A stretch of DNA of 34,743 nucleotides, from contig JAHFFM010000002.1 of assembly GCA_023247935.1 (NCBI GenBank), positions 1 through 34,743 of the forward strand, given 5' to 3'. This document shows, piece by piece, positions 6,001 through 28,366 of this stretch. The notes below the pieces were generated by a model. The model was not told the origin of the DNA and ran no database searches. It was given only the letters and a program-made list of their open reading frames with translations. Origin of the DNA: Candidatus Omnitrophota bacterium. GTDB taxonomy: Bacteria > Omnitrophota > Gorgyraeia > 2-02-FULL-51-18. How positions within the stretch are numbered: the stretch's first letter is position 1; each line of letters begins with the position of its first letter. A program made the translations under genes and the position numbers.

Positions 6001-9000
6001 TAAAATGAAGCGCTTTTTTAAGAAATACAAGAAACCGTTTGGCTTCCCGTTGACGGCTCAATTCTTCAATCATTCGTATCGCCGCTGATTTTCTCGCAGT
6101 GAGTCGCGCACCTTCCCCAACCCGACCGAATATTTCGGGATGGGCGACAAATTCCGGCTCATTAACAGAGAAAGGACGGCCAACCAACGCGTCCAATCTT
6201 TGTTGGACAAAACCGGTCAACCAAAAATAGTCGTCTGGGTTTCGGCCGCTACCAAAAATAATTTCCCAAGACTTTCCAGAGGGTTTTAGCAAACGATCTT
6301 GATCATCAAATTTCAAAGCGATGGATGCGACATAATCGCCTTTCCAATTCGCCGCGTCATCCCAGCGCGCAGCATTCTTTACCGGCGTGACGCGAATATC
6401 GTATCGGTCTTGTTCCGGCGCCAAATCAAAATGGATCAAATACTCCCGTACAGGCTCTTCTTCCCCGCCTGCAGGGCCGGGCGCGATCCAATAAAAAGAA
6501 GCTAAGCGACGAGGGTCTCCATCCAAAGCCTCGATAAGGCTAGGTGTCGACCGTCGAGAAACCTGCATGACTTTCTGCCAATCTTCAAACCAGTCACGAA
6601 CCGTATCTTCCAACCATTCGTAGGAATTGTGTCCAAATAAGTAGAAGTCATCTCTAAAAATTTCAAGGGGCACGCCGTGTTCATCATTGCGCACCTGAAT
6701 ATACGCTCTTTGGGCTCTATGTTTAAGAGGTAGATTTTTAGGGGATAAATGCCGATGTTTATAAAAAATCAGTTCTTCTCTTCCGCGAGGAATCGGCGCT
6801 TCAGGCACAGGAAACACATAAATTTCATAGCTAGCGAATTCATAGTACCTGGGAAATTGCCATGAATCGTTTGAACGTTCGGGTTGGGAAAGCAGAACAA
6901 TGTAAGATTTGGCTGGATCTTTGGGATCCTGTACTTTTAAATAAATCCGGTAAGGCAAAAGTTCTCCCGCCATAAAAGTCGGTGCGACATAATTGCTCCA
7001 ATTTTTCTTAAGCGCGGATTCGGTACTGGCGTCCAGCTTCGTCTGAAGCTCTTCGGCGCTAATCATGTCTTTGCGGGCGGCCAGTTGTGAAAGCTGATTG
7101 GAAAAACGACCTTGTGCCCGTGGTCCCATGCCTTGAAAGGTGGCATCGGCACGTTTGATAGCGCCCATCAGAGCCTGAAGTTCTGGCTTTGCTTGCAACT
7201 CTTGAGAGACTAGATGGCTGTGAATCACATCGCCAAAATTTTTGTCTAAAAGTCCCAAGGGATCGCTGGCTCCAGGCACTGTTTGGATCGCCTCCCCAAT
7301 CAATATTTTATTGGCGCCCGCGCGGAACTTATTGAGAGCGTCTCTTTCTTTGCCCCAAAGCAACTGGATGCCATTATCCACCACCGTACTAAGGACTGGA
7401 GAAGAATTGCTCGACAAAACACCCGCCTTCGCGCGAGCCATGACGCGAGCGAGAACCGCTGGCTCATTGAACTGAAGAATAAAAGATTCGGCGATCGGCG
7501 CAGCCACTTGTTCTGCCACCACAGCCGCCGGTTCTGTGAGAGTCGACAAAATGCTGGAGGCTAGTGGAGCTGTCACAAACGCCGCCGTCACCCATTGGAA
7601 AAATGTACGGCGACTAATCACCGGATGACGATCCGCGAAGATTTGATAAAGTTTGAGAGTGAATGCCTCCCAGGATGTGTAATCTTTATTCAACAGAGTC
7701 GTCTTCGCCCAACGCGAAATCATAGGCACCATCTCGGAATAAAGTTCTTCGTGACCTTTTAGAAGCGCCTCAAATTGCCCCAAAAGCTCATTGTCGTTTA
7801 TCTCGGGATGTTTTAAAGAGGTTTGATAAATTTTCTCCGCCGCGTCGCCGATCAGTTGACTGATCCGAATCGCTCGCCCCGCCCGAGCCTGCGAATCCTC
7901 CGCCAGCCGTGCGCCGCCCGTCTGCTCATCATCGGGGATTCCAGAGAGGAGGCGCATGCTCTCTTCAAATTTTTCGGCTAAATTTAATATTTTGTCCCCA
8001 TGGGAATTAAATAGTCGTTCGCGTCTTTTGAAATACCTCTGAGCGATTTCTCTATTGTCCGCATCCCCATCGGTTTCTTTATTGCGCTCACCCAATAGAA
8101 TTCTCCAAATCCATCTGTCAAATGCCTCACTGCTCGTTCGGCGTGGAAGCTGGGCATGATAGGCCAAAAGATGCAAAAGACTGAGCATGCGGTCGAGATC
8201 GTCTCTCGAGATCTGTTTTTTCTGCTTAAATGAATCATAAATTTCCCGCACCTCTGTTATTTGCGTGAAATAATTAGCTTCAAAGTAAACCTTGGAAACC
8301 CCCGGCGCGACAACAACAAACTCACGAATCTTATTCAAATTTCGTTCGATACCTAACAAAGCCTCTTCCGCTTTCGCCCAGTCAAGGTCACCAGACTTTG
8401 GTTCCTCCGCCAGCCGCGCGCCGGCTTGAGGCAACTCGGCCATAATAGCTAGCCTAATTTCAGCCCAAGATTCTTTAATTTCCTGAAAAGCCACTTTAAA
8501 ATTGGAGAATTTTCCATTTAAACCGCTTCCACCATCAAATACAACCCAAGGAAAGTAGAAGCTGAGGGCTTGGTAAGGCACGGGTTGATCAAAACTTCCG
8601 TTATAATTCGAGGGGCGATGAGATGAGAAAGATCCGGTGGCAATGGTTTCCCCTATCAATAATTTAGAATCCATAAACTTCACCAAGCCCGCCAATTCAT
8701 CTTTGTGTTCTGCGATAAATTTCCTAAATTCGGTCACGTCATATTGATTGGCGGATTTGATCAGCTGATCCAACAACCCAAGCATGGCGTAGAACCGATC
8801 AGCGTCTAACCATTCACGATAACTTAATTTCTTTTTTACTCTTACTTTGTCATAAATCCAAAATTGAATTCCCGAACCTAAACGCTCCATATCCCCAAAT
8901 CGAGCGCGAATCTGCTCTACTTTTTCTGCCATAGTGGTATTTCCAATTTCAGGCAGTGACTCCGTCGCCGTTGCCAACCGCGCGGCTAGAGGTTTTTTGG

Positions 9001-12000
9001 CGACAATGAAAATATGGCTATTGGGATAAACTTCTCCCCTTTCCATCTCAAAGTCCTTCTTCCATCGGTCTTGCAAATAGGGAGCAATGTACGCTTCGAC
9101 GTGTTCGATTTCAAAATAATCTCCGAGTAGTTCTCTGTACTGGCTTTCCGTCATCTGGCCGGCTGACTCGTCCATATCTCGGTTCCAGAGATCCCCTTCA
9201 AAATAATATTTGCTTAAAAAATCATGCAAGTCGTAGCTTGAAAGGCGAACTTTTTTATGGGAATCGTCCGTATAAGAAAAAGAGATTTTCCGGTGCCGGT
9301 ATTCTTTTACAAATTTCTCAAACTTTTGCTTGGCATATTCCGTTTTTAAAAAAACTTCGACCTCGCGAGGCTCCGGCTTCACACCATCTCTAAAAATCAG
9401 AGTGCCACCCGGTTTGAGCAAATCTTGCGCAAGCTTCAACACGCGCCGACTCATTTCCCGTCCAAAAGAAACGTCGATCTCATGTAGAGTGCTTGAGATA
9501 ATCACCGTGCTGAATTGGCCTTTAAAATCACTGGGAATATTCCACTGCGTCAAATCATGCCTGTAAAATTCGATTTTAGGGTGATTTCTTCGGGCTTGTT
9601 TGAGAAGCTCTTCGTCAAACTCAATCCCAACGACTTTAGCATCAGGTAATTTTTGCTTAACCAGCCCCAAAATATCCCCCGCTGCCGAACCTAGTTCCAT
9701 AATTTGATCTCCGCGGACGTACTCCACCATCCGCGCCTTATCTTTCATTCCCAATAACAAATGCCCGCGCACATCTTGATCAGAAAAATCTGTTGGCTGC
9801 TTAACCAATGGTAATAATTGGACAAGTTCTTTTTGACTGAGTCGTTCAATCGCGGTATGGACTAAAATGTATTTTTTAGAACCTTTCCATAAAAAAGCCC
9901 ATGTGAATATCCCTCGAATAAATCTAAATTCCTTTCGGCTGGTCTTTTCCCGATAACTAAAATATTTCCTTAGCACGTCTTCGTTGACGACCTCCTCTTT
10001 TGTCAAAGAATAATTGAATCCCCAGATAAGCATCGCCTTCCACGCCGCCTTAAAAAAATGATCTTTGGCCAGCGCCATGATGTAGATCACTTCCCGCTCC
10101 GTCTCTCCGTACAAAGTTTCGGGAGCGGGTTGATTCTCCGCTAAACGTGCGGCGGCTTCGATTCCTTGCTTATCCCATGCTTTGCTGACCATTAAAAATA
10201 GCCAGGCGGTGATCTGAGAGAACTCCTTAAAATTTTTAAAATCTCCAATCGTTGAAATAACCCGGTGGGTTTGCTTGTCTAGAGCCATAGAAAGCTCCGC
10301 TGGACTTCCTTCAAAACGGGTATTCTCATAAACCAAATACTTTATAGCGATAACGTCGCGCGCTTCCCCCTCATCTACCGCCACCATCCCTTGAAAACGA
10401 ATCCCTATTTTTTTTCTGCCACCATTCACAGTCAATTCGATTTCAAGAGGCATCATCCAGCCATCGGAATTATCAAATTCTTTGGTAACCCTTGCGGTTG
10501 CCCCCGCCAGTCGCGCGGCTAATTTTCCTGTAATTCTTCCAACCTCCACTTCTAATTGACGATATCTATCCGAGTTTTTTACAAGTGCGATGGTGTGATA
10601 ATAAGGATCGTTTATCACCCGCTCGTATAGATCAAAAATATCTCCTTTTATACTCTCAGGCGCCGCTACAGTAACCGTTAAAAATCCGCCTTCTTTTATC
10701 CCAAGAAGACATAATCCAGTCCAGGAATCCATCCTAGTGAGACGAGATTTATTAGCGGCAAGGACACGTACCCCCGGAATATGGTTAACAAGCTCTGTTA
10801 AACTAACCAGACTTGTGGCAGGACGCCCATGGAGTTTTGGCCAAATAATCTTAAAATCTCTAGACTCAAGCTTCCCCCGCCTTGCCGTCAGCCGCGCGCC
10901 GCCTATTTTTCTAACTTCTAAAGTTAAACCGACTTTAGGAAAAGTCCCGAGCGGGTGTTGGTCTAAAGTAAAATTAAGATCGGCGTCGCTTCTTACGATG
11001 CCTCGAATGGGAGTCGCTTGTTCTTTGCCGTACTCATCGAAAATTTTTCGTATCATCGGACTCATTCTTCGCATGGTTTCTTCGCTGTCACTGATAAAAA
11101 GATGACCATGCTTGGGATTCAGCAGAGGAACAATGGGCGCAAACATGCCGTAGAGCTCTCCTTCGACTCTTCCATTCACCATATTCTGAGTTTCTTCATC
11201 AGCTCCAGGGACAGAAGACATCAATCGAATAGCCATAAGCATCCGCGTATTTCTGGTGACCGCATAATTGGGTACTCCGAACATCAATACATAGTTAAAT
11301 TTATTTTTGCTGGAAGCTTCCTGTAAATCTTGCCAGGAATCAAAATATTGAATGCTTTCGCTGACTTCGAGCTTGCGGTGCAAATGCTCTTGTATTTCTT
11401 GAACCATGTGATCCGTATCAATAGCTGTCACCTCAAGACCGCAGAAAGCCAACAGCGCCGGCATATAGTCCCGCCCACCGGGTCCAACCACCAAAACTCT
11501 TCTGCCTTTTTCTAATTTCATTGAAATCAATTTGAGAATAATTCGCTCTTGCTGAGCTTCATCAAAAATAGTCTCTCTTGAAAGCTGATTGATCTTCCGA
11601 AATGCTTGCCTAAATTCATCGGCGGATACAAGCGGTTTGTCTACCGACAGCCGCGCGCCTTCATTCCAGTCGCGCCCGAGCATATCCATGATGTCTTCTT
11701 GGCCTGTTTTCCATTTGTCTCCGCCATAGTAGTTGATTAGTGCTTTTTCTAAATTTTCGTTGGTATCAGCTACAAATACTTCTGCGTCAATATCCAAACT
11801 TTTGTCTTGAGATTTTAAGTAGCTCTTTGCGGTGATATCGATTGCAATATGATGCTTGCTAGACCAAATATAGGCTACTCCGTGATTCATAAACCTAACC
11901 GGTCCCGTTTGATCTAATTCATCACATCTCAGTATGTCTGCTGCAAAGCCTTTCATTAAACTTCTTAAAAGGTTGGCTAGACTCTGGCTCAGTTCAAAGC

Positions 12001-15000
12001 AATTATTAAGAATGTAGGTCTTCTGTCCTTTTTTCGCTGCTTTCCTCGCCTCATGCCGATGAATTCGCGTCACACCCGCCGCAATTTTTTTTGCGATAGC
12101 CTCATCTAAATTCCCATGAATACGAAGCATTGTTTTTCCAAATTTTCTATCAACAAACGTCCGCTCTCTATTGCCCACCATCCGTACTCCCGCCAGCCCC
12201 TCTTCCGCTGAAACTTTGGAGGCTAGCCGTGCGCCGTGTGCTCTTTCTTCCGGCATTAAAAAGTGTGCTTGGTAAGCCTCAAGCGCCATCCTTCGAATTC
12301 TTTCTGAAATTTTAGGATCCAGCGGGTCTTTGCCTACCACAAACGCTAGAAATTCATTCAATGGCTCTTCGCCCATCATCCGGGCAATCATCTCTGCTTT
12401 TAATTTGAGTTCTCCTTGAGCCTCAGTCCCGCCCCCTTGTGCAAATACATTGGTCAACGTAAACACTCGATCCGGCACAAATACCCCATTCGTCCACGTC
12501 GATTTTAGAGCGGCTTCGACCTCAATAATAATCTCGGCAATTATTTTTTTATGTTCCGCATAATCGTCAAAATATCCCTTCAATAATTTTTCGTCAGGAC
12601 GCAAAATGGCGTTCGCGCTTCCTTCCACATCCTTGGCATTCCGCGCATCCTTTTTGATGGCATAGCTCAGCGCATCGAAATGAGCCAACTCTTCATTGAC
12701 TGTGTCTTGAAGATATTGCCAATAAGCGGCTGGGTAGACGAGACCTTGTTCTCGAAGGGTTTCTTCTAATTGAGTCTGGATTGGAGAGGGATTTTTGTAA
12801 TCCCTGCCATGGAAATGAACATTGATCCAACCGAACGGATTTCTTCGATAGAGAGCTGGGTCGAGAGTGCCGTCTGGCAATTGGTTTTCTTTATCAGCGA
12901 GTATTTCTCTAGCCTTGTCCACCACTTTCAAGTCATGGTCTGCGACAGGGCCGGATACAACGATCACTACTTCATTTCTAGCGGGCGCTGTTTCTGCATG
13001 ACTGTAGATTTCGTAAGGATCATATACAAAATAAGTGGTCACTCGATGCCCATCGGGAGATATCAAGGGGAGTACTTTGTAAATTTTGCTAACAATCAAA
13101 AGTGTTCCCTTTGACTGAGAGACCGACTTCAATAAATATCCTTTAGTAATCAAGAAAGACTTGAAGTCTCCATTAAGGAAATCCCAAAGGTCTTCAACCT
13201 TTAATGAGCTTTTGGAATCAAAAAATCTTTTTGGAAATACCCCCTCTTCATCTATCTCTTTTAAAAGAGGTTCTATTTCTTGACGAAATTGGCTCATCGA
13301 AATCTCTTGAGCCATGCAAGAGATCATCAGCTCCCCTATTTTTGGTGCAAATCTGACATAAAACCACCGAGATGCCGGATCTTCGGCTTTATTTTCTGCC
13401 AAGCGCGCCCCACCCACGCTTCCAAGCGCGCGTAAGACTTTTTTTATTTCAGCGAGTGTCTTTATTCCGATCCCATCGATATCCAGTATTTGTTGGGGTG
13501 TTGCCGATTTGAGTTGGCTGAAATTTTTTATTTTGCCAGCTTTTAATTGCTCGGTTTTGCCGATAGGAAACTCACCAATTTTGGTTTTACCCGCAGGCTC
13601 GTATCTTCCTTGCTGTCTAGCTTCTCTCCATTTCTTAATATTTTCCCAGCGTCGCCATTCCTCCAAAGCGCTCTGTTTCATGGCATTAATGGCTTGCGCC
13701 GAAATACTCCTGCTCTTAGTAGAGAATTTTTTCAGATATTTCTTAGCAATAGACTCTTCGCTTTTATAGGTCGGGGAAATAAACAAGAGCCTTAAAACTT
13801 CTCTAAGCTGAGGACTGAGCCTGAGGAACGATTCTCTATTCCCTGCCTTCCAAGCCTCTACAAATTTTCCAGAAAGCTTTTGATGATATTCGTTTTGCCT
13901 GCTCTCATATTTTTTATCTACCATTTCATACAATTTTTTATAATTGATGGAACGTTTGCGAAAATATTGAGTCAGAGTCGCTCTTTTAATTCCCATAAGC
14001 TTAGCTGCCTCCGAAACTGCAAGGCCTTTGAGGGATTTTTTATGCTTCTCCAGAAGAGCAGGAATTTCAGAGGGCACACCTGGCTCTCCCTTTACGATTC
14101 CATAGTCGGCAGGATCCTCTTCCGGATGTCGTTCAAAATATAAAAAAAGAGAAGGGTTGCTCACCCCCATCAATCTCGCAGCTTCTCTAAAACTGGGCTT
14201 TTCCCGTTGAAGCAATCGTTTATATTTCCTTAAAAGGGGTCCAACAATAGCCCTCTTAGTGGGCTTTTTTTGCACCATTTTTTTCGCCAGCCGCGCACCC
14301 GTTCCCAGCTTCTTATATTTCTCTTTCATCGCTTGCCATGCGGCTTGGTCTTGGATCGGGCCTAATCGCCGCTCCATATCCTTAAAAAATAAATCAAAAT
14401 TAACCCCATTTGAATTTGGGTCTATGTAGCAATAAACCTGACTGGTATGCGCCGATTCTTTTCCCAGAACCGGTAGAAAATTTCTAGTATCGAAATCCAC
14501 GAAGAAGCCATCTCCACCATATCTGTAGGGGAACAGATGGATATTTCTTGGGGACAAAGCGAGACGATTGATATCGTTGGCAAGATCGTAGACCCAACGC
14601 TCTTCAACAGGAGGCAATAGGGGGGCGCTTGATTTCTCAATCCAATCTACGCTCTCAAGGAGTCGTTTTTTAGCTTTTTCCCAACGTGCTAACACTTCAG
14701 AATATCGTGCTGTAAATCGCTCGCGCGTTAAACCTCCGCTCTTTTCGAGATCAAGAATTGCCTTGGAAGTGATGGCGAAATATTGACGAGCGCTAATTCC
14801 CTGTAAATTCTCCGTTCCTCCATAAGCTTGGTGCTTCTTCGCCCAAGCGACCAACTCATCAATATCCTGAGGCTGTAAAAACATCTGAAACTCGGCGTCC
14901 ATATGCGCCAAAACATCCCTGACAGTCCCTACGCGGAACTGGGTTTTAGCAGAATCGATTTTTAAACTTTCATAATTATCAGAGAACCTTTGTCTTCCAT

Positions 15001-18000
15001 TGCCTAGATTGTGTAACAAAGCATTAGCAATAGGATATTCCCTATCTTCGTGAATTAATGTGTAAAGATCTTGCTCATAAATCCTTTTCATTTCAGCGAC
15101 GGCCTCCATACCCTCTTCCCATGCCGTCAGTCGCGCACCGCGGATGATTTCCAGGCGCGTGATGTTCGGCATTTTGACAAATTTGGCAGAGTCCAGACCG
15201 AATTTGGATTTCAACCGGTTCAGATTTAACGTCGAGATACCGGGGCCTTCATCAAAAACAATGATGCGCAGACTGCCACCGACCTCCTCTTGGCGAATAA
15301 TAATGGCTGGATCGTCATACCTAAATTTTTCATTTTCTCCGGTGATCCATGTAGCTTTAAAGATCGATCGAAAAAGTGGCTCGACCTCTTCAAATTTGAC
15401 GCCCTTTATCTTTTCTTCAAAACTTTGCCTTAGAATCGCCAACGAATTTTCCACGAACAACTTGCGCGGCATCCGAACCGTGTAGCCGCCCACATTTCCT
15501 TTTGCCGCCGGAACGTCATAATAATGATAATGATGTTGCGCCACGATTCCCGGCTGCTTTCTCAAGTGGTAGATAAATTGATAGTAATGATTCTTATCGA
15601 CTTGTTTCCGACGCTCAAGCTGCATGGCTTCGATGAGGCGGTCGAAAATCGCTGGATCAAGGGGCTTTTGGTTTTCCTGTCGTATCCGCTTCTGATCTTT
15701 TTTCCAGCGTCTATACAATAAGTCAGACAGAGCCTCAAAATTTTTGCGATTAGAAGCTAGCGGAAATAAATAAGTGTCGACCGAGCCCAAATCATAATGA
15801 ATCTGCACTCTGATTTCACTTCTGTCATTGGGATAGTCAATCTCAAGCATAGCGTTTTCATCGAGAAGTTCGACCTGATAAGACATCATGCCATAATGGT
15901 CGACAACGGTTGCCGGGTAGGGACGGCTCCGAACGAGCTCGACGATTTCCTCGAACGTGAGAAGTTCTCTAGCTGATGTTTTTGGTGTAAGCCCGATTTT
16001 GGAATGAGAAATAGAAACAGGATCTTGAGCAGTCAAAACCACTCCATACGCGTAATTTCTTAAAGCGTTAGCGTCATCTTTGGGTAAAATAAAAACCTGG
16101 GCGTCAAACCCGCGCTGCTTGTAAAAATACCGGATGGTAGCAGGGCTTACCAAGCGATTATGATTGGCCGCCATACGCGATGTAATGGACTGGTCTGTGC
16201 TCCACCAACCTTCCAGTGTTTTCTGCCGACGGATAATTCTATTAAGACGAGCGAGAGAGTTTTCTTTAGGATGCTTGGCAATGTACTCGAAATCCTCATA
16301 GGACGTTCCCCGATGCTGGGTGCCTTCTTGTTGCATTTCTATTCCCTGTTGTTCCAACAACGCATGAACCCGCTTCATCAACTTTTCGTACTGAGTCTTG
16401 TCTTGAACGGTTTTTAATAAGCTTTCGGCCAATCGAGTAATAAACAAGCTCCGGCTCAAATAGCTCTCATGAAAATCATTCCAAATAGTTTCAAGACGAA
16501 GATCGTCACTGCCAGGCGCATCGAACAAAACAACGGCCTTGCCCCCTTGCCTCAAAACTCTTCTCATTTCAACGGCGCCCTGGTGGAGATTCAAATAACC
16601 TTGCGTAAACGAAGAAACAACAAAATCGCAGGAGTTCGTGGCTAAAGGTAGGTTTTCGGTTTGAGTGCGGCGATAGCGAACATGGCGCGCCGGGCTTTTG
16701 ACAAACCGGGTTTTGGGAAACACGTCGATAGCAGTAACCGTGCCGCTGGGTCTCGATTTGGCCATGGCATTCGCGAGCCACAAATGAGGCCCTGAGCCGA
16801 TGTCAGCCATTCTCAAAGGAGTCCCAGGCTCAAACGTTTCCAATTCATGCAGTACAAACCTCTCGAACATCGCCGGGTAATACTGGTCGAAGCGGCGTTT
16901 ATGGTAAGTATTCTCGGGTAAAAAACGCTCTTTCCATCCTTTCATCAACCTAGATGGTAGCGAGTCGTTGCGCAGGGATTCAAATGCTATAGATCCAACA
17001 CCACTCGAAAGCCGCGCGCCGGCTTTTAGTTTCTTCGAAGCTTGCGTTAGATTTTTAATGCGTTGAATACCTTTGGAAGACTGTGCTCGATCATAAATAC
17101 TTAAAATTACTTCTGGGGCTTCCTCTCGTCTGGAGCTCAATACTTGAAAAGCCTGATGGAGCTTACCTTCATACTTAATGGCAAAAAGTAGTGCCGCTTT
17201 TTCAACTTTCTGCACAAAACCGTCGATAACGGCGTCCGCAAATTTTTTAGAGGAATCCACGAAAAGAACCTGTTCGTTCAAAACCACATGAAGAGGTTTT
17301 TTTAGGCGCTGCGCTTCGTCCAGAAGACTGGAAAAAACAACTCCGAGACATCCCTCGATGGATCCTCCAGCGATAATCACATGTAAAATCGGCTGACCGG
17401 ATAATTGTTTCAGAACAGACCGAATCGTTTGATGCATGTGGGTTTCATACCAATGAGCAATAATCCGGTCTATTTGCTTTTTCGTGAAGCCCTGCGATCT
17501 CAGCGTTACTTCTGTCGGCTTTTGATTCGTCCAAAAATAATGACTGCCCTCTTGCCTTAAAAATCCTCTGTCTTTAAGTTTCCGAGTTAAGCTTTGATCA
17601 TGCCCAGGATCAACAAAATAGCGTTCTCCAACATTGTCGCTATAAGTCACTCTTGGCCAGCGCGCGACATTCGTCTCCCCAAAAATTTGAATTCCTGCTT
17701 TCGCCAATGCTGCCATGTTTTCGCCAACAGCAACCAGACCTTCTTCCTCTTCACCGGCCGCAAAATGATTTACAACAAACAAAGCCGCTTTTTCATTTGC
17801 TAGCCGGGCACCTTCTTCCACGCGTCCCAATCTGACGGTGCTGATGGGTTCCATGAGTGAAGCGGCGACTAATGTGTTGGCGTCGGCTAAAGATAATTTG
17901 GAGGCGTCGGCTGTAAGGACTTTTTTATTTCCCGTGAGAGGCTCCAAAAGAATCGATTCGTATTTTTTGCGATTGGTTTCGCCAGTGACGGTTGGAGTGA

Positions 18001-19522
18001 GAACGGCGTAGGAGTAGCCTTGTTCTTTGAAAAGCTTTGTCAGATGTTCGGTGTGATAGCCGCCTGAGATAAGGACGGCGACTTTGGCTTGGTGTTCCGT
18101 AAGAGCGTTTTGGGTTTTTTGAATGAAGGCTAGGTCTCTTTCACCGACCGAAGTGTAAAAATCCCGGAGAGCCAGCTTCGTGTCTTCGAGCGAGCGGTCG
18201 AGCGGAAGCAAATCGTCGAAATAACCTAGTTCCGCGAGTTTTCGATTGATGAATGCTAAATAACGCTCTTCACCAAAATCCGGCTCATTAACTTCAAACA
18301 AATGAAACTCCTCGGAGCTCATTTGAATGCTGTAGGCAGAGCGAAGCAGATTCAAATAGCGATCGATAGCATGGATCAACAATGCGTCATTGCGAGGAGC
18401 CGGAGGCGACGAAGCAATCTCAGTCGAGAAGATTGCTTCGCTCACTTCGTTCGCTCGCAATGACATATCGTAAACTTTCTTTTCTAGAACTTCTGATTCC
18501 GCAATCAGCCTGGCGAGGTCTATTTTTGAAAAGGCTTCTAAGTAATCCAGGTATTCTTTGAGATTGGGGTATTCCCTAGCCTCAACCCCATTCTTCTCGG
18601 CAATAATAAAAGTATTTCGTAAGTAGGAAAATTGAGCAAGCTTCTCCTTGCCTAATTTCCCGGCGCTTTCAAGGTATTCTCGAAGCTCTCGTCCTCCCCC
18701 GCTTTTTTCAATCGCCTCAATGAGCGACGCCTGCTCTAAATTGGCGAGATTAAAATCCATTTTGCTTTCCTGGTCTTGAACCGCTAAAAGTTTTCGGATC
18801 GCTTCAAAACTGGATAAATCGAGATTATTTTTTACCGCCAGCGCCGCCAGCGCTTTAAAATTTTTCTCGGCCGTTTGATTTCTCTCTTTTTCGTATGAGA
18901 TTAGTTCTTCGGGATAAAATTTATTTTTGAGTTTTGCGAGCGAGCTTTGTGCACGACCGATGGATTCCAGCGCATGTTCGCGCTTGCCTGCCAAATCGGC
19001 GTACGCGTGAAGACTTTTCATGTACAGTTCTTTGTCTTCAACACCGATGATTTTCATCGGGTGATCCGAGGTGAGATTGAGATATTCCTGCCCAGCGATT
19101 TCTCCGTCGATTAAAAATTTCTTGGCCAGGCGATCCCAAACTTTGCGAGACGCCATTTTCTTGAGTGCCGTCAGCGTATCATCTTGAGAACCACCTTCCG
19201 ACAACACCAAATCCACTCCATATTTGGACATAATCTCATCCAGCGTTTTGGCGAGATTTTGCTGACCGCTCAGATTGGCGTGAGCGTCTTGGATGTGGAT
19301 GATAAAAACATTTTTGTCGCCACGATGAATTTCTTTAAGCGATGAAAATTGGAGCGGCGCCTCAAAACGCGTGGGGTCAGAAAGGAGCGTGGCCAGCGGC
19401 TTTTCAGGCAAAAGCTTTCCTATATTATCTACCGGCGACGCCCAAGCCAGATCGGATAAAAGAAAAGTAAATACCAAAAGAAAGCTGATAGCCCTAATGC
19501 TTATCGGTTTTCTACTATTCAA
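1..19522 (-). CDS. Giant secreted multidomain protein, 3'-partial (at least 6,507 codons in window; no stop before the window edge)
   Basis: The frame is minus strand with codon first bases at coordinates = 1 mod 3. I hand-translated it from TTG 19522 for more than 570 codons. I spot-checked it at 1-60, 360-840, 9360-9780, 11400-11520, 13440-13500, 13920-14220, 15240-15540 and 16500-16860. All stretches are open and protein-like. An in-frame TAA lies upstream at 19538-19540, and GAAGG sits 7 nt upstream of the TTG. None of the listed minus-strand ORFs is in this frame. Any in-window stop would have produced a listed ORF, so the frame must stay open to position 1. Confidence 0.85.
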   Translation of the reverse strand, partial: MNSRKPISIRAISFLLVFTFLLSDLAWASPVDNIGKLLPEKPLATLLSDPTRFEAPLQFSSLKEIHRGDKNVFIIHIQDAHANLSGQQNLAKTLDEIMSKYGVDLVLSEGGSQDDTLTALKKMASRKVWDRLAKKFLIDGEIAGQEYLNLTSDHPMKIIGVEDKELYMKSLHAYADLAGKREHALESIGRAQSSLAKLKNKFYPEELISYEKERNQTAEKNFKALAALAVKNNLDLSSFEAIRKLLAVQDQESKMDFNLANLEQASLIEAIEKSGGGRELREYLESAGKLGKEKLAQFSYLRNTFIIAEKNGVEAREYPNLKEYLDYLEAFSKIDLARLIAESEVLEKKVYDMSLRANEVSEAIFSTEIASSPPAPRNDALLIHAIDRYLNLLRSAYSIQMSSEEFHLFEVNEPDFGEERYLAFINRKLAELGYFDDLLPLDRSLEDTKLALRDFYTSVGERDLAFIQKTQNALTEHQAKVAVLISGGYHTEHLTKLFKEQGYSYAVLTPTVTGETNRKKYESILLEPLTGNKKVLTADASKLSLADANTLVAASLMEPISTVRLGRVEEGARLANEKAALFVVNHFAAGEEEEGLVAVGENMAALAKAGIQIFGETNVARWPRVTYSDNVGERYFVDPGHDQSLTRKLKDRGFLRQEGSHYFWTNQKPTEVTLRSQGFTKKQIDRIIAHWYETHMHQTIRSVLKQLSGQPILHVIIAGGSIEGCLGVVFSSLLDEAQRLKKPLHVVLNEQVLFVDSSKKFADAVIDGFVQKVEKAALLFAIKYEGKLHQAFQVLSSRREEAPEVILSIYDRAQSSKGIQRIKNLTQASKKLKAGARLSSGVGSIAFESLRNDSLPSRLMKGWKERFLPENTYHKRRFDQYYPAMFERFVLHELETFEPGTPLRMADIGSGPHLWLANAMAKSRPSGTVTAIDVFPKTRFVKSPARHVRYRRTQTENLPLATNSCDFVVSSFTQGYLNLHQGAVEMRRVLRQGGKAVVLFDAPGSDDLRLETIWNDFHESYLSRSLFITRLAESLLKTVQDKTQYEKLMKRVHALLEQQGIEMQQEGTQHRGTSYEDFEYIAKHPKENSLARLNRIIRRQKTLEGWWSTDQSITSRMAANHNRLVSPATIRYFYKQRGFDAQVFILPKDDANALRNYAYGVVLTAQDPVSISHSKIGLTPKTSARELLTFEEIVELVRSRPYPATVVDHYGMMSYQVELLDENAMLEIDYPNDRSEIRVQIHYDLGSVDTYLFPLASNRKNFEALSDLLYRRWKKDQKRIRQENQKPLDPAIFDRLIEAMQLERRKQVDKNHYYQFIYHLRKQPGIVAQHHYHYYDVPAAKGNVGGYTVRMPRKLFVENSLAILRQSFEEKIKGVKFEEVEPLFRSIFKATWITGENEKFRYDDPAIIIRQEEVGGSLRIIVFDEGPGISTLNLNRLKSKFGLDSAKFVKMPNITRLEIIRGARLTAWEEGMEAVAEMKRIYEQDLYTLIHEDREYPIANALLHNLGNGRQRFSDNYESLKIDSAKTQFRVGTVRDVLAHMDAEFQMFLQPQDIDELVAWAKKHQAYGGTENLQGISARQYFAITSKAILDLEKSGGLTRERFTARYSEVLARWEKAKKRLLESVDWIEKSSAPLLPPVEERWVYDLANDINRLALSPRNIHLFPYRYGGDGFFVDFDTRNFLPVLGKESAHTSQVYCYIDPNSNGVNFDLFFKDMERRLGPIQDQAAWQAMKEKYKKLGTGARLAKKMVQKKPTKRAIVGPLLRKYKRLLQREKPSFREAARLMGVSNPSLFLYFERHPEEDPADYGIVKGEPGVPSEIPALLEKHKKSLKGLAVSEAAKLMGIKRATLTQYFRKRSINYKKLYEMVDKKYESRQNEYHQKLSGKFVEAWKAGNRESFLRLSPQLREVLRLLFISPTYKSEESIAKKYLKKFSTKSRSISAQAINAMKQSALEEWRRWENIKKWREARQQGRYEPAGKTKIGEFPIGKTEQLKAGKIKNFSQLKSATPQQILDIDGIGIKTLAEIKKVLRALGSVGGARLAENKAEDPASRWFYVRFAPKIGELMISCMAQEISMSQFRQEIEPLLKEIDEEGVFPKRFFDSKSSLKVEDLWDFLNGDFKSFLITKGYLLKSVSQSKGTLLIVSKIYKVLPLISPDGHRVTTYFVYDPYEIYSHAETAPARNEVVIVVSGPVADHDLKVVDKAREILADKENQLPDGTLDPALYRRNPFGWINVHFHGRDYKNPSPIQTQLEETLREQGLVYPAAYWQYLQDTVNEELAHFDALSYAIKKDARNAKDVEGSANAILRPDEKLLKGYFDDYAEHKKIIAEIIIEVEAALKSTWTNGVFVPDRVFTLTNVFAQGGGTEAQGELKLKAEMIARMMGEEPLNEFLAFVVGKDPLDPKISERIRRMALEAYQAHFLMPEERAHGARLASKVSAEEGLAGVRMVGNRERTFVDRKFGKTMLRIHGNLDEAIAKKIAAGVTRIHRHEARKAAKKGQKTYILNNCFELSQSLANLLRSLMKGFAADILRCDELDQTGPVRFMNHGVAYIWSSKHHIAIDITAKSYLKSQDKSLDIDAEVFVADTNENLEKALINYYGGDKWKTGQEDIMDMLGRDWNEGARLSVDKPLVSADEFRQAFRKINQLSRETIFDEAQQERIILKLISMKLEKGRRVLVVGPGGRDYMPALLAFCGLEVTAIDTDHMVQEIQEHLHRKLEVSESIQYFDSWQDLQEASSKNKFNYVLMFGVPNYAVTRNTRMLMAIRLMSSVPGADEETQNMVNGRVEGELYGMFAPIVPLLNPKHGHLFISDSEETMRRMSPMIRKIFDEYGKEQATPIRGIVRSDADLNFTLDQHPLGTFPKVGLTLEVRKIGGARLTARRGKLESRDFKIIWPKLHGRPATSLVSLTELVNHIPGVRVLAANKSRLTRMDSWTGLCLLGIKEGGFLTVTVAAPESIKGDIFDLYERVINDPYYHTIALVKNSDRYRQLEVEVGRITGKLAARLAGATARVTKEFDNSDGWMMPLEIELTVNGGRKKIGIRFQGMVAVDEGEARDVIAIKYLVYENTRFEGSPAELSMALDKQTHRVISTIGDFKNFKEFSQITAWLFLMVSKAWDKQGIEAAARLAENQPAPETLYGETEREVIYIMALAKDHFFKAAWKAMLIWGFNYSLTKEEVVNEDVLRKYFSYREKTSRKEFRFIRGIFTWAFLWKGSKKYILVHTAIERLSQKELVQLLPLVKQPTDFSDQDVRGHLLLGMKDKARMVEYVRGDQIMELGSAAGDILGLVKQKLPDAKVVGIEFDEELLKQARRNHPKIEFYRHDLTQWNIPSDFKGQFSTVIISSTLHEIDVSFGREMSRRVLKLAQDLLKPGGTLIFRDGVKPEPREVEVFLKTEYAKQKFEKFVKEYRHRKISFSYTDDSHKKVRLSSYDLHDFLSKYYFEGDLWNRDMDESAGQMTESQYRELLGDYFEIEHVEAYIAPYLQDRWKKDFEMERGEVYPNSHIFIVAKKPLAARLATATESLPEIGNTTMAEKVEQIRARFGDMERLGSGIQFWIYDKVRVKKKLSYREWLDADRFYAMLGLLDQLIKSANQYDVTEFRKFIAEHKDELAGLVKFMDSKLLIGETIATGSFSSHRPSNYNGSFDQPVPYQALSFYFPWVVFDGGSGLNGKFSNFKVAFQEIKESWAEIRLAIMAELPQAGARLAEEPKSGDLDWAKAEEALLGIERNLNKIREFVVVAPGVSKVYFEANYFTQITEVREIYDSFKQKKQISRDDLDRMLSLLHLLAYHAQLPRRTSSEAFDRWIWRILLGERNKETDGDADNREIAQRYFKRRERLFNSHGDKILNLAEKFEESMRLLSGIPDDEQTGGARLAEDSQARAGRAIRISQLIGDAAEKIYQTSLKHPEINDNELLGQFEALLKGHEELYSEMVPMISRWAKTTLLNKDYTSWEAFTLKLYQIFADRHPVISRRTFFQWVTAAFVTAPLASSILSTLTEPAAVVAEQVAAPIAESFILQFNEPAVLARVMARAKAGVLSSNSSPVLSTVVDNGIQLLWGKERDALNKFRAGANKILIGEAIQTVPGASDPLGLLDKNFGDVIHSHLVSQELQAKPELQALMGAIKRADATFQGMGPRAQGRFSNQLSQLAARKDMISAEELQTKLDASTESALKKNWSNYVAPTFMAGELLPYRIYLKVQDPKDPAKSYIVLLSQPERSNDSWQFPRYYEFASYEIYVFPVPEAPIPRGREELIFYKHRHLSPKNLPLKHRAQRAYIQVRNDEHGVPLEIFRDDFYLFGHNSYEWLEDTVRDWFEDWQKVMQVSRRSTPSLIEALDGDPRRLASFYWIAPGPAGGEEEPVREYLIHFDLAPEQDRYDIRVTPVKNAARWDDAANWKGDYVASIALKFDDQDRLLKPSGKSWEIIFGSGRNPDDYFWLTGFVQQRLDALVGRPFSVNEPEFVAHPEIFGRVGEGARLTARKSAAIRMIEELSRQREAKRFLVFLKKALHFKDKKRNSIAPPDRDAINLISEILIRQGTWTQKPATDADAFTAIWKMVDDPKTISFFDQTLVFYILRSLRGSNPAKSQLEFLRDTCQAKDYNAFANFKAGHSRLPRLAYVCACLFQDTYLLSVSANRVRGRSTIFDEARDLLSRTEALPVILEELEYASRNNGDGAVISKGDIKSANPVAVGIRELLEGMSVPAEVQDKTFIVEGISETNPYLPAALLWRGAKEVVVASISATFIFSTKRHIRETNDLAFSSGRNLGTCRFVNSTDGLNLPDAIVLSAGARLASYHDSFHEILDRLSEIKINAPEKPANEALEFLMQWQREWENKDESQRPLFFTKGKNEWRNNPVDILIGHLKNENYYPPYKNEIATFLLMAWKSKVSKRTLYRLLLVAIAPKSQSRKKAIEMQAASEILVMIAGMDKGARYWINGYLGQVISGRQHPPSTLLAHQLLLKIKLGARLAEAPKTSPDLLFVDAVIEKHRKRVGEIIKNPNVSLEKVLRLAKTHQNDILDRIQQLVSMKAQYAQGNYEATGVMVRLALEFSFTQNLRKNEDLYLDYVDALLEFTNVEETRKSKIVTNAEGYYEHYWIWAMTLSLKGGSEAIQILSDEIQTVGNEVFDPREDQFHDRHWSVAYQEILAEAIYLAKTYSTQDQKLKREVLNKALKLKSLHLQKIARIYLKQPIFNVNRRSVKDHLIALFYRSERLNQEAGGKSYSEPALADKTGLVKQEVARITGARLARIHQGVLNGQTLVTRLAGLVDILPYMELNEEIPFSLREVGQLPLRKKYGRLKVGTTYFKKKSDSRGLVYATGKPIYLGDDTATISVFKFGPNAYDIELHVVSKYTGKRFVSARYPFVRDGKFVTGHMNFSSPSPDKLLQMEILSGVIHDDLPWELQVITEDSFPRGSGLFSLDQKDHTVNFWSRNVRLVYRRSAEKPILKIQRAPWIAKDAWVATLWAPSEKGQHSEIPLDSIVLYQNGQVVTQNVAGKPMVGYWHLPQIPTVTHMANNAKAQWNVYWLANGGTFFPNSDADLVSIAYRKPDHLYNLEGKRVEIRLSGFGLSNQTKRYWVNFHGVSIGGKKVNARGVWYYDTKNKVSRHFVLFHDGAFCDPIDVTDQMAADTFPWGAGRQVSSDDVLADFILLCEGKLTRNAEYDLVTRLKALAVSDAQPFLEMLQRLTNDDTFSDPRLISPGDKLKIVTKMKQVLRGVAPKMFSGEAITTFYRAELESRTARLEARKKIRVARELKESFLMNRVRGLALQKKQAHLRSQEILDRKAHLLRTIRDSKETISVNEIKQALARFSSLLVVNSESARLFFAAEQASWNGSTRLLQGLVQEVNEFFRFEAAVKPKAAAARLANYTEMVRVLSHRGIHARPSAVLEILDQYARSYDESLIIKAHFNGYGRPESASLSKPTEMMMLAIDDRGQFELEFSSEKFDRERLKRLAKVFERVLRNEKVLHEQGPGSEYTETPDGRRLPSVEVWGIKDYKRFIDEALVLPLSSFAWQGGSMEYQDQRADFKTTLQFATVDERNQFITSLSDGTYRAFLHWGWAPEPSEWHFKPAEISEEDKNAVDSRTITLVAKRAYFTPYVSLSPHAQGTFVIMRSSIGSPRNLLNEEKRNALPPDSFKWMNYNITNTSPGSQFIGGSVGFPEGVRARSIPAAARLANDNQFKKFGIEIRNDHADFSKAPKNVAWAMDHRREIAYAPIAQKPDQFKKIKLLSPLGSLPRISEKERSVSSLGVFLGLAKIDGRVQPVAVKLYRKGGLSPGELIYAQVLDRLGIGAKFYGVVESGDVTGYVMQIILGGNTNTPEQHKDFLTVNELLRLAGFVVATEYRVTRAGELVAIDAGDLVPDEDDGDRTLEEFIRKNNAASQKGARLAGESRQWFSGEVVGEILDGGRCEFIGNIKGTDVGAVQAAKFPKGEVVVIKVSDFTDFAKQLHDNERRVIRAIRTLGKIREDKSYEGPQDLIPGFVGRVGNRVVNIFPYMRDLTLEKLFVRGKISLK
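9385..9715 (-). other. Class I SAM-dependent methyltransferase-like module C within the giant ORF
   Basis: Translated QIMELGSAAGDILGLVKQKLPDAKVVGIEFDEELLKQARRNHPKIEFYRHDLTQW...FSTVIISSTLHEIDVSFGREMSRRVLKLAQDLLKPGGTLIF. This carries the complete motif I / II / III / LKPGG series typical of Methyltransf_11/12/25-type domains. Confidence 0.65.
11270..11500 (-). other. Rossmann/class I methyltransferase-like module B within the giant ORF
   Basis: Translated GRRVLVVGPGGRDYMPALLAFCGLEVTAIDTDHMVQEIQEHL. It has a glycine-rich motif I followed by an acidic residue at the end of beta-2 (AIDTD). Confidence 0.45.
13433..13489 (-). other. Helix-hairpin-helix-like motif within the giant ORF
   Basis: Translated ILDIDGIGIKTLAEIKKVL. 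It has the hxxhxGIGxKTA signature of HhH DNA-binding motifs. It lies just upstream of the GARLA site at 13397-13411. Confidence 0.45.
13960..14190 (-). other. Two helix-turn-helix-like motifs within the giant ORF
   Basis: Translated FREAARLMGVSNPSLFLYFERH and VSEAAKLMGIKRATLTQYFRKR. Both resemble the Fis/HTH_8-type pattern AAxxLGISRxTLYRKL. Confidence 0.45.
15236..15453 (-). other. GHKL (histidine kinase/MutL/Hsp90-type) ATPase-like boxes within the giant ORF
   Basis: Translated FVENSLAILRQ is N-box-like (E-N-S-x-A). About 69 residues later, RIIVFDEGPGIS is G1-box-like (DxGxG). That spacing is longer than usual, so the call is tentative. Confidence 0.3.
16520..16830 (-). other. Class I SAM-dependent methyltransferase-like module A within the giant ORF
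   Basis: Translated sequence: ...PLRMADIGSGPHLWLANAMAKSRPSGTVTAIDVF...NSCDFVVSSFTQGYLNLHQGAVEMRRVLRQGGKAVVLFD. This shows motif I (hhDhGxGxx), an acidic residue at the end of beta-2 (AID), a DFVVS strand and the typical RVLxxGG segment. Confidence 0.6.
19439..19522 (-). other. Sec-type signal peptide of the giant protein (MNSRKPISIRAISFLLVFTFLLSDLAWA / SP)
   Basis: The N-terminus has a basic n-region (R, K, R), a hydrophobic core AISFLLVFTFLLS and an A-W-A motif before Ser-Pro. This was translated directly from the sequence. Confidence 0.6.
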
Positions 19523-19624: not shown

Positions 19625-19712
19625 ACATTTAGCCAAAATTTATTTGTTTTTAATTTAATCAAAATTAACTAATTATTACAAATTATTAAAATTAATTTCA
19701 AACTCAAATTCT

Positions 19713-19767
19713 GCAGACTAAGGTGTGCAAACTAAGGATGAGCAGACTAAGGATCGACAAACTAAGG
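19713..19767. repeat. Four direct copies of GCA(A/G)ACTAAGG at 14-15 bp spacing
   Basis: Copies are GCAGACTAAGG 19713-19723, GCAAACTAAGG 19727-19737, GCAGACTAAGG 19742-19752 and ACAAACTAAGG 19757-19767. A degenerate fifth copy, ACAAACTAACGG, lies at 19835-19846. Confidence 0.85.
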
Positions 19768-19801
19768 TAGGTCAGGTTTAAACCTGACCTACCTTAGTTT
19801 G
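19758..19801. repeat. Perfect 44-bp palindrome (22-bp arms, no loop, centre TTTAAA)
   Basis: The sequence is CAAACTAAGGTAGGTCAGGTTT|AAACCTGACCTACCTTAGTTTG. I checked it base by base: all 22 pairs are complementary and pairing breaks at 19757/19802. The left arm is the fourth direct repeat copy. Confidence 0.9.
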
Positions 19802-19856
19802 CAGGCCTTGAGTAAGGGGAGTTTCTCATTGCTAACAAACTAACGGTTAAGGGTAG

Positions 19857-19874
19857 CGCAAACTTTAGTTTGCG
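19857..19874. repeat. 18-bp palindrome CGCAAACT-TT-AGTTTGCG sharing the GCAAACT core
   Basis: Read directly from the sequence. Its half-site is the same as in the direct repeats and the 44-bp palindrome. Confidence 0.8.
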
Positions 19875-19989: not shown

Positions 19990-20015
19990 GTGCGGATAAA
20001 CTTTTGGAGTTTTTA

Positions 20016-20381
20016 ATGTCTTTGCTTCATGATTATTCGTACGTCCTCGGCTTTCTGATTATCGGAATCGGCTTCGTTGTCGTCAACAGCATCCTCCCCC
20101 TTCTCTTAAGTCCCAAAAGCCGCGGCTCCCGCGCGAACGACCCTTACGAAAGCGGTGAGGTGCCTATCGGTAACGCGTGGATCCAGTTCGACATCAATTA
20201 TTATCTTTTCGCTTTGATTTTTTTGGCATTCGACGTGGAAGCGGCGTTTTTATTTCCCGTACTCGTCGTCTACCGCTCCATGCTGAGTTGGGCGATGTTT
20301 TTAGAAATCGCCTTATTCTTAGCGCTACTGAGCTTCGCGATACTTTACGCCTGGAAAAAAGGACTTTTTGAATGGAAATAA
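20016..20381 (+). CDS. nuoA: NADH-quinone oxidoreductase subunit A
   Basis: It carries the ND3/NuoA signature ...DPYESGE...[25 protein letters not shown] prefer ATG 20016 (GGAG 6 nt upstream) over the track's TTG 20004, which sits too close to the predicted -10. Confidence 0.9.
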
Positions 20382-21040
20382 AAGCCGGCCTCGACCACAA
20401 TCCTGAATATTTGAATACACAGTCGCCCGCACCGGGACTGGTCAACATGTTCCGCGTCGAGGATGTTTTAAATCTGGCTCGCGCCAATTCGCTTTGGCCC
20501 CTCACTTTCGGTTTGGCCTGCTGCGCAATTGAGCTCATGGCCGGCGGCGCTGCGCGTTTTGACATGGATCGTTTTGGATTTGGCGTGTTCCGTCCTTCGC
20601 CTCGCCAAGCAGACTTGATGATTGTCGCCGGCACGATTTCCCGCAAGATGGTTCCTTGTATCAAAACTTTGTATGACCAAATGCCCTCCCCCAAATACGT
20701 GATCGCGCTCGGTGGATGCGCCACCGCCGGCGGACCGTTTAAATTTCCCGGCCAATACGGCATTCTTGAAGGCATCGACAAAATTATTCCGGTGAATGTG
20801 TATGTGCCGGGCTGTCCACCGCGTCCCGAAGCGCTGATCGCGGGCATTATGGAACTTCAAAAACAAATTAAGGCTGGAAAAACGCAAGGCGTCATGTCCC
20901 CGGCTTCTTGCAATGACTCTCAGGATGGCCGTCCCGCGGAATACAAAAACGCGATTTCCCGGGCGGATTTCCGCAAACCCGTTCCACCGCCTGCGCCGCC
21001 AGCTCCTCCCGCAGCGGCTGCCGCTCCGACAGCGAGTTAA
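20372..21040 (+). CDS. nuoB: NADH-quinone oxidoreductase subunit B (N2 cluster subunit) with Pro/Ala-rich C-terminal tail
   Basis: Conserved motifs are [28 protein letters not shown] and [11 protein letters not shown] (Cys ligands). It overlaps the nuoA stop by 10 nt. The tail is [21 protein letters not shown]. Confidence 0.9.
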
Positions 21041-21044
21041 TCCG

Positions 21045-26873: not shown

Positions 26874-26899
26874 TCGTTTAAAAAATAAAAGGAATCTTG

Positions 26900-28357: not shown

Positions 28358-28366
28358 GCGACCAAA

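Follow-up and report, generated by a model that had tools for sequence, protein, structure and literature searches.

How can a protein that begins with an export signal carry, along its body, enzymes and nucleic-acid-binding domains of the kind normally found inside cells? This question is raised by a giant open reading frame (ORF) on the minus strand of the first 34,743 nucleotides (nt) of contig JAHFFM010000002.1 (GenBank assembly GCA_023247935.1, Candidatus Omnitrophota bacterium), a stretch that we refer to as the window. A sequence-only reading of the window had described a signal-peptide-bearing giant with methyltransferase, ATPase and DNA-binding parts, and had suggested either effector-like cargo delivered to another cell or a processed polyprotein. 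We favour the second of these interpretations, given that a short motif lies at the borders between modules, is the only feature of the body conserved across otherwise non-homologous relatives, and is followed in relatives by twin-arginine translocation (Tat) or Sec signals. The explanation towards which we lean, with some reserve, is that the ORF encodes a polyprotein that is cut at these junction motifs, and that the signal peptide serves module 1 only.

A recurrent motif between unrelated modules

The giant frame (2..19522, minus strand) starts with a TTG at 19522 and continues through 6507 codons without a stop as far as window base 2; the TTG is preceded by AGAAGG at a distance of 7 nt and by an in-frame stop at 7 codons. 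The gene crosses the window edge and its C-terminus lies outside the window, such that the protein is at least 6507 amino acids (aa) long and the conserved C-terminal module of full-length relatives is missing here. Within this protein, the pattern [GA]ARL[AST] occurs at 20 sites, compared to 0.10 in shuffled sequences (at most 3 in 2000 shuffles). The remaining window ORFs, 4236 aa in all, do not contain it, and the other five frames have zero to one copy. On the minus strand, the motif reads GARLA at aa 571 (motif 1, 17798..17812), aa 1742 (14285..14299), aa 2038 (13397..13411) and aa 2430 (12221..12235), GARLS at aa 835 (17006..17020) and aa 2622 (11645..11659), GARLT at aa 1462 (15125..15139) and aa 2875 (10886..10900), and AARLA at aa 3002 (10505..10519), aa 3124 (10139..10153) and aa 3513 (8972..8986). 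The remaining junction motifs, also on the minus strand, lie at aa 3701 (8408-8422), aa 3870 (7901-7915), aa 4471 (6098-6112), aa 4785 (5156-5170), aa 4961 (4628-4642), aa 5238 (3797-3811), aa 5856 (1943-1957), aa 6165 (1016-1030) and aa 6378 (377-391). Together the 20 motifs delimit 21 segments, which span 122-627 aa; their median length, 278 aa, is close to that of a typical bacterial protein.

We examined relatives of the giant protein for the same pattern. At 14 GTDB Omnitrophota loci, a giant ORF occupies the same divergent position beside the nuo operon. In BLASTP comparisons across these syntenic loci, only aa 1-570 align (40-50% identity), and the bodies are unrelated except for one methyltransferase module. 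In almost every one of the 14 loci the 4-mer most in excess is GARL or ARLA; one locus uses GARM. A logo built from 147 sites reads [small]-G>A-A-R-L>M-A>S>T, with five to six fixed positions and no conservation outside them, and the eight residues on either side of the motif (1124 sites) are depleted of hydrophobic and enriched for polar residues. A metagenome scan yielded 306 family loci, among which the lineage-specific variants GARM, GTRL and GSRL were found; variants with Phe (GARFA) also exist. Known domains beside a motif end three to five residues ahead of it and are never broken by it. Examples are HATPase_c in family member P0063, FHA in relative L032 and, in the window protein, a methyltransferase (MT3, described below) that ends 3 residues ahead of the next junction motif. 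The first GARLA of the window protein sits in a disordered segment, with a predicted local distance difference test score (pLDDT) <50, after the well-modelled module 1.

The content between the ends of these proteins is shuffled in the manner of cassettes, while the N- and C-terminal modules are fixed. Window modules S3, S5, S6, S10, S18 and S20 have homologues elsewhere in other family members, with alignments that start near motifs, and S20 is among the few modules common to several relatives (L110, L039, L056 and P0046). The cargo domains in relatives include GNAT, FHA, DUF218, AAA_5, LRR, HD, a true HATPase_c and an alpha-CTD-like helix-hairpin-helix (HhH). A profile search with the N-terminal domain recovered 9195 representative clusters, 5396 of them at an expectation value (E) <1e-30; the domain is always N-terminal, in proteins of up to 7364 aa, and complete family members range from ~1.2 to 7.4 thousand aa (kaa). 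Full-length members end in a weakly conserved C-terminal module with an amphipathic helix and the ending ...A[IV]G[SAT][AS]A-COOH. No model for either the N-terminal or the C-terminal module was found in Pfam and NCBIfam. The conserved C-terminus could be a sorting, secretion or degradation signal. The ending was present in 101 of 174 proteins, often with the last ARL or ARM ~12 residues from the end, and the pattern was seen in relatives P0042-P0174 as well as in the complete ORFs of L045, L051, L053 and other loci.

Since the borders of the cassettes coincide with the motif, the motif might instead act at the level of nucleic acid, as an internal translation start or as a recombination or RNA-processing site for cassettes. 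If it were a start, position 4 would be CTG, TTG or ATG and the next residue one that allows Met to be cleaved off, and the Leu or Met at position 4 and the A, S or T at position 5 are in line with this. We counted codons at the 20 window motifs and at 84 motifs in loci L002-L034. Third-position G is favoured in both the window and the relatives (consensus GGC GCG CGG YTG GCG). In relatives, Ala is encoded by GCG in 74% of cases against a background of 41%, and Leu by YTG in 80% against 46%; NGG makes up 68% of the motif Arg codons against 34%, and AGA or AGG is used for 0 of the 20 window Arg residues against 37%. This strong bias above background speaks for a role of the nucleic acid, and selection at the protein level does not by itself explain it. 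However, internal starts need no unbroken 19.5-kb frame, and 7 of the 20 window Leu codons are CTA, CTC, CTT or TTA, which are not start codons. The Phe variants likewise do not fit, no GGAGG-like sequence was found within the window motifs, and 15 nt is too short for homologous recombination. Across the motifs Arg is encoded by both CGN and AGR codons and Gly by all four of its codons, and selection therefore acts on the peptide. We consider a nucleic-acid function for the motif very improbable. The reading of the motif as a Shine-Dalgarno sequence or internal start was rejected on the codon evidence; the possibility that the motifs mark captured start codons was also set aside, as there is no general Met enrichment after the motif.

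Signal peptides after the motif and the case for cutting

A short motif conserved at the borders between unrelated modules is one feature of a polyprotein, and features of a free N-terminus after the junction, found in the relatives, are another. Directly behind the motif, many modules in full-length relatives begin with a canonical twin-arginine signal peptide, for example GARFAERQMNRREFLGTAAQSLAALAFISLIPDDASA, GARLAVGRRTFLGGLASAFLITAIPG and GTRLAFNRRDLLKVAAGLGVVFGLAAG, and other modules open with Sec-like signals or membrane anchors. Among 200 family proteins (594,000 aa), 24 of the 30 Tat-type motifs in the bodies start no more than 20 aa after a junction, where 1.9 would be expected (binomial p=4e-24), with cases spread over 20 proteins. 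The first hydrophobic segment of an interval between motifs falls in its opening tenth three times as often as expected. A free N-terminus is required for Tat and Sec signal peptides to work, and the Tat system carries proteins already folded out of a cytoplasm. The placement of these signals therefore suggests that the motif most likely marks proteolytic processing sites.

The same placement bears on the possibility that the product is a single uncleaved giant multidomain protein, in which GARLA would be a flexible linker or docking motif and the internal hydrophobic and RR segments would be membrane anchors of one multi-pass protein. In line with this, published Omnitrophota giants have been described as single proteins with many transmembrane (TM) helices and mixed enzyme domains, and no protease was found here. 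However, canonical Tat signals (RRxFLK, h-region, AxA) lie 1-16 aa after the motif in 20 proteins, which a linker role cannot explain, and a pure linker needs no invariant Arg with lineage-specific variants. We therefore regard an uncleaved chain as distinctly unlikely.

If the ORF encodes a polyprotein, one translated chain of at least 21 independent modules (median 278 aa) would be cut at or beside each [small]-G/A-A-R-L/M-A/S/T motif. Module 1, whose Sec signal peptide would be cleaved off and whose domain resembles TIKI/erythromycin-esterase hydrolases, would be secreted. The remaining window modules (two to three methyltransferases, a helix-turn-helix (HTH) pair, HhH, HPr-like and kinase-like modules, and others of no recognised kind) would be released as soluble cytoplasmic proteins, and those modules of relatives that start with a Tat or Sec signal after the motif would, once cut free, be exported singly. 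What we infer here comprises the cleavage itself, the exact scissile bond, the location in the cytoplasm of the producer and the identity of the protease. The earlier view of an exported chain with modules of cytoplasmic type is weakened in its premise that the whole chain is exported, which the post-junction Tat signals undermine. As these signals imply cutting in a cytoplasm, the N-terminal signal peptide may serve only module 1, and with the signal peptide confined to module 1, the "cytoplasmic" methyltransferase and HTH modules would present no paradox.

With respect to the enzyme, module 1 is a candidate processing protease, being the one enzyme-like part that every member has; the cut could just as well be made by a protease acting in trans. 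The C-terminal module was considered for this role and rejected for now, since it has no Pfam or NCBIfam match and no conserved Ser, His or Cys. Downstream of 15 complete family genes, we found no conserved neighbouring gene, whether for a protease or for secretion.

Several points weigh against the polyprotein explanation. The argument for cleavage at the motif is drawn from sequence. No signal peptide lies directly after any junction in the window protein, and the key argument thus rests on relatives. Module 1 is predicted to be periplasmic or exported, which conflicts with processing in the cytoplasm, and a protease was found neither in the C-terminal module nor among conserved neighbours. 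The third-position G bias hints at an extra, unexplained constraint at the nucleotide level. Finally, hypervariable cargo suits secreted effectors better than housekeeping cytoplasmic proteins.

Such effectors are the basis of another explanation, in which the ORF encodes a MARTX-like effector polyprotein that is exported as a whole chain and cut at GARLA only inside a prey or host prokaryote. The conserved end modules would be a delivery and activation apparatus, the methyltransferase, kinase, GNAT and HTH effectors would act in the prey cytoplasm, and modules with Tat or Sec signals would use the prey export machinery. The architecture parallels that of MARTX, with conserved termini, variable central cassettes and Leu-site cleavage in unstructured linkers (PMC2900308), and a TIKI-family endopeptidase is known as a MARTX effector (PMC6254334). 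Also consistent with this explanation, the bodies are hypervariable among close relatives, there are several paralogues per genome, the cargo needs cytoplasmic cofactors (S-adenosylmethionine (SAM) methyltransferases, kinases, GNAT, FHA, HATPase_c, HD), a signal peptide stands at the extreme N-terminus of every family member, and predatory or episymbiotic lifestyles are reported in the Omnitrophota literature. However, we found no RTX repeats, C80 domain, pore-forming region or secretion-system neighbour, no Sec-dependent route is known for carrying a 6500-aa chain into another cell, and the lineage carries a nuo operon. Export from the cytoplasm of the producer also explains the post-junction Tat signals more simply. 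Overall, we view a MARTX-like effector polyprotein as rather unlikely. We also find it unlikely that the protein is, specifically, a prokaryote-targeted MARTX analogue, delivered whole and cut in the prey cytoplasm to release ~20 hypervariable enzymes and DNA-binding proteins; there, the co-delivered TIKI-like module might do the cutting, and some modules of relatives would hijack the Tat or Sec system of the prey to reach the prey envelope.

Modules of the window protein and the surrounding locus

The polyprotein explanation assigns separate fates to module 1 and the rest of the chain, and we characterized both. A Sec-type signal peptide was predicted at aa 1-28 (19439..19522, minus strand), MNSRKPISIRAISFLLVFTFLLSDLAWA/SP, with the cleavage site AWA/SP. 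It has the layout of the textbook signal peptide that the sequence-only reading had proposed at this position: an n-region with three basic residues (R4, K5 and R10), an h-region of 15 residues, AISFLLVFTFLLSDL, and an AxA site with small residues at -3 and -1. The n-h-c layout is kept in homologues, in line with a signal peptide that is conserved in the family, and 136 of 151 members of the family have a hydrophobic segment at the N-terminus.

Module 1, the conserved N-terminal domain (aa 29-535, 17918..19438, minus strand), resembles the TIKI/erythromycin-esterase/ChaN group. An AlphaFold model based on a 22-sequence alignment was confident (pLDDT 82.5, predicted template modelling score 0.76) and comprises an alpha/beta core with two strand-helix units around a ~270-residue helical insert. 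The invariant or near-invariant residues H76, D79, H81, N83, E109, R462, G487 and H490 fit the "2His/2Glu" signature of the TIKI/erythromycin-esterase superfamily, DxH...E...GxxH, with D79, H81, E109 and H490 as candidate catalytic residues. The Glu is at exactly +28 from the first His in 147 of 151 members, and GGYH is present in 139 of 151. In the reference 2His/2Glu pattern, H85/E113 of Bcr135 and H3902/E3930 of RRSP have the same 28-residue His-to-Glu spacing (PMC6254334). Thus module 1, to which this comparison is confined, shares the strand-DxH...Glu(+28)...strand-GGYH pattern with TIKI, TraB-PrgY, ChaN and erythromycin esterase, but differs from the TIKI superfamily in that its first acidic residue is Asp rather than Glu, in the helical insert, and in the want of a statistically significant fold or profile match. 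EreC, Bcr135/136, ChaN and HopBA1 are within the top 40 Foldseek matches, none of which is significant (EreC E 0.25, Bcr135 E 0.27, ChaN E 1.1, HopBA1 E 2.9). Pfam matches were marginal (ChaN E 0.043, DUF5694 E 0.0018, each in one to two of 22 members), and a profile search of the PDB with module 1 gave chance coiled-coil matches only. Given the non-significant Foldseek and marginal Pfam matches, we hold that module 1 is probably, though not provenly, a hydrolase of the TIKI/erythromycin-esterase superfamily.

Two further proteins match this domain. P0040 (L036, 9014-10516) is a stand-alone module 1 homologue of 500 aa with its own signal peptide, on an Omnitrophota contig with Wood-Ljungdahl genes, and the next gene encodes an unrelated protein of 311 aa, secreted or TM, without the GARLA motif; a polyprotein body is therefore not needed for the domain to function. 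P0022 (JGI, 673 aa, from a contig of 2619 bp) carries a NuoD annotation and NuoC/D Pfam domains, yet shows 71% identity over 38% of the giant N-terminal domain. It may be a chimeric assembly or a gene call across the divergent junction between nuo and the giant gene.

For the remainder of the chain, we ran Pfam scans on the whole protein and on each inter-motif segment and compared scores with the curated cut-offs. Of the three methyltransferases in the sequence-only reading, two were well supported. MT1, claimed at 16520-16830, is a class I SAM methyltransferase core at aa 907-997 (16532..16804, minus strand; Methyltransf_11 E 4e-10, 40.5 bits against a cut-off of 21.2). Its motif I and the acidic end of strand 2 can be read as DIGSGPH...AIDV, and it weakly resembles BioC and UbiE. 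MT3, claimed at 9385-9715, is a class I SAM methyltransferase at aa 3274-3386 (9365..9703, minus strand) that matches Methyltransf_12, Methyltransf_25 and Methyltransf_31 above the cut-offs with E ~1e-10 (Methyltransf_12 44.7 bits against 30, Methyltransf_25 41 against 27). The corresponding residues read ELGSAAGD...GIEFD, and the closest solved structures are small-molecule O-methyltransferases (best E 2.5e-6). The third, MT2, claimed at 11270-11500, is a Rossmann-like segment with a weak methyltransferase match at aa 2664-2750 (11273..11533, minus strand). It carries a motif I-like VVGPGGRD...AIDTD, but Methyltransf_23 (E 0.0019, 18.4 bits) falls below the cut-off of 27, and a PDB search with MT2 returned no methyltransferase among its matches.

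The proposed nucleic-acid-binding modules held up in part. Two HTH units are present in the region claimed for a Fis-type pair (13960-14190), but the Fis-type assignment did not hold, as HTH_8 scored only 12.8 bits (E 0.1) against a cut-off of 22. Unit 1, at aa 1776-1801 (14120..14197, minus strand), matched HTH_psq with E 0.0011 and 19.1 bits against a cut-off of 20.4, and unit 2, at aa 1831-1867 (13922..14032, minus strand), matched HTH_3 with 23.9 bits against 23. The pair is a tandem duplicate, 40-43% identical to two units in relative L077. At the claimed HhH (13433-13489), a GIG hairpin is present within an HhH or RNA polymerase alpha-CTD-like segment at aa 1993-2031 (13430..13546, minus strand), but the assignment is weak, with both profiles below the cut-off (RNA_pol_A_CTD E 0.003, 17.7 bits against 23.8; HHH_5 E 0.012, 16.5 bits against 27); a similar module is present in P0063.

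The GHKL ATPase proposed from an N-box/G1 pair at 15236-15453 (aa 1357-1429, minus strand) was not supported. The region had no Pfam match at E up to 1, and phmmer against the genuine HATPase_c module of P0063 gave -0.8 bits. Only DxGxG (FDEGPGIS) is present; the N-box Asn is missing in SIFKATWIT, the G2 box (GxxGxG) is missing, and the claimed module stops 39 aa past G1 compared to 66 aa in P0063. A single-sequence AlphaFold model of aa 1170-1466 was unusable (pLDDT 39.9). Homologue searches with aa 836-2038 and with module S3 returned none, and there are thus no alignments for the GHKL-like, HTH and MT1 modules.

The modules across the motifs at 377..8422 are mostly dark to Pfam. The Pfam scans of the window protein detected no SecA_DEAD, C39 or S8 peptidase, dockerin, RTX repeats or C80 cysteine protease, and its hydrophobic segments are limited to the signal peptide and two to three weak candidates. 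A lone Tat-like signal, HPVISRRTFFQWVTAAFVTAPLASSILSTLT, was noted at aa 3966-3996 (window 7535-7627), 95 aa downstream of the nearest motif; this may be the remnant of a signal, the sign of an unrecognised junction or a membrane anchor. We also noted two weak HPr-like segments of the phosphotransferase system (PTS) at 1670-1930 (aa 5865-5951) and 10664-10834 (aa 2897-2953), which include GIHARPS and LHGRPAT, resembling the HPr His-15 site, with PTS-HPr matches below the cut-off (E 0.0065 and 0.11). Segments S20 (377-1030) and S21 (2-391) show kinase-like features, ...VAVKLYRKG... and ...VVVIKV..., without a Pfam match. HRDxKxxN kinase motifs are clear in the sequences of other family members.

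The giant gene lies divergent to a nuo operon with nuoA, nuoB, a fused nuoCD, and nuoH, I, J, K, L, M and N (window 20004-29794). The nuoE, nuoF and nuoG genes are absent between nuoCD and nuoH, such that the NADH-oxidising module is missing at the locus. NuoCD is 70-76% identical to proteins from Candidatus Omnitrophota metagenome-assembled genomes, some of which were deposited as "uncultured Planctomycetia," and this similarity makes an Omnitrophota origin of the window most likely. An exact 60-mer from the start of the window is absent from the two contig collections scanned, and the contigs that carry an identical NuoH stop short of the giant gene. The nuo operon adjoins ~15 of 79 metagenome loci. 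On one 310-kb metagenome contig (Ga0209515_10000025), the paralogous family genes L068 and L116 occur together with only one beside nuo, and genomes therefore carry several such genes. Between the start of the giant gene at 19522 and nuoA at ~20004, the intergenic region 19699-19873 contains a perfect 44-bp palindrome at 19758-19801, CAAACTAAGGTAGGTCAGGTTT/AAACCTGACCTACCTTAGTTTG, flanked by at least six more CAAACTAAGG/CAGACTAAGG-like 10-mers in both orientations. This stretch resembles an operator array or a hairpin in the divergent promoter; an Rfam scan of the window, including 19699-19873, returned no match. The plus-strand ORFs of 60-160 aa reported by the ORF finder antisense to the giant gene within 1-19522 (for example 174-659) are almost certainly spurious.

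Comparison with known systems

Giant proteins of this phylum have been reported before. Methyltransferase (PF08241), HATPase_c and GNAT domains have been published for Omnitrophota giants (at least 10 kaa) with a signal peptide or TM helices, and the topological puzzle that these pose was discussed there with no mention of cleavage (Nielsen & Lui 2026, bioRxiv 10.64898/2026.06.07.730766). Archaeovorin and Dockerin types were described by West-Roberts et al. 2023 (10.1101/2023.11.21.568195), who state that the cleavage points are unknown. According to the key preprint, neither structure prediction nor reasoning about function can proceed for Omnitrophota giants as long as their cleavage points are not known. 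A search of a full-text library found no paper on the GARLA motif or on a polyprotein in Omnitrophota. The protein described here is like the published giants in its phylum, very long ORF, N-terminal signal peptide, sequence-unique body and mixed "cytoplasmic" enzyme domains including PF08241, with HATPase_c and GNAT in relatives, and post-translational cleavage has been hypothesised for the published giants too. They differ in that the published proteins measure at least 10-30 kaa and carry numerous TM helices as well as SecA_DEAD and C39 or S8 peptidase domains, none of which was found here, whereas the present family spans 1.2-7.4 kaa and has fixed TIKI-like N-terminal and C-terminal modules and a defined junction motif. 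The motif and the Tat placement provide explicit candidate cleavage sites for a family of >9000 sequence clusters. These would be the first candidate cleavage points for Omnitrophota giant proteins, and the motif offers a rational way to split these giants for annotation.

MARTX toxins are also giant bacterial proteins in which conserved termini bracket variable effector cassettes, with content that differs between strains, and proteolysis at short sites with a Leu, located in unstructured linkers, frees the cassettes (PMC2900308). Neither RTX repeats nor a C80 cysteine protease domain was found in the window protein. MARTX proteins, for their part, have no N-terminal Sec signal, leave the cell by type I secretion and act on eukaryotic targets. 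Their site is small-Leu-small, whereas the GARLA family has an invariant Arg before the Leu or Met.

The viral polyproteins of picornaviruses and flaviviruses likewise encode many unrelated proteins in one ORF, with short junction motifs in unrelated flanks. In contrast to these, the giant gene is a cellular chromosomal gene beside nuo, with hypervariable modules and no recognisable viral-type protease. If cleavage is confirmed, the family would represent a virus-like polyprotein strategy in bacteria, with some 4-25 unrelated, rapidly exchanged proteins per ORF, and would point to an unknown site-specific protease. A polyprotein would remove the paradox of SAM-dependent and DNA-binding domains behind a secretion signal, and whether and where giant bacterial proteins are cut becomes a directly testable question. 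In viral polyproteins, processing makes internal signal sequences functional, and we propose that the same may hold for the Tat and Sec signals that follow the junction motif in this family.

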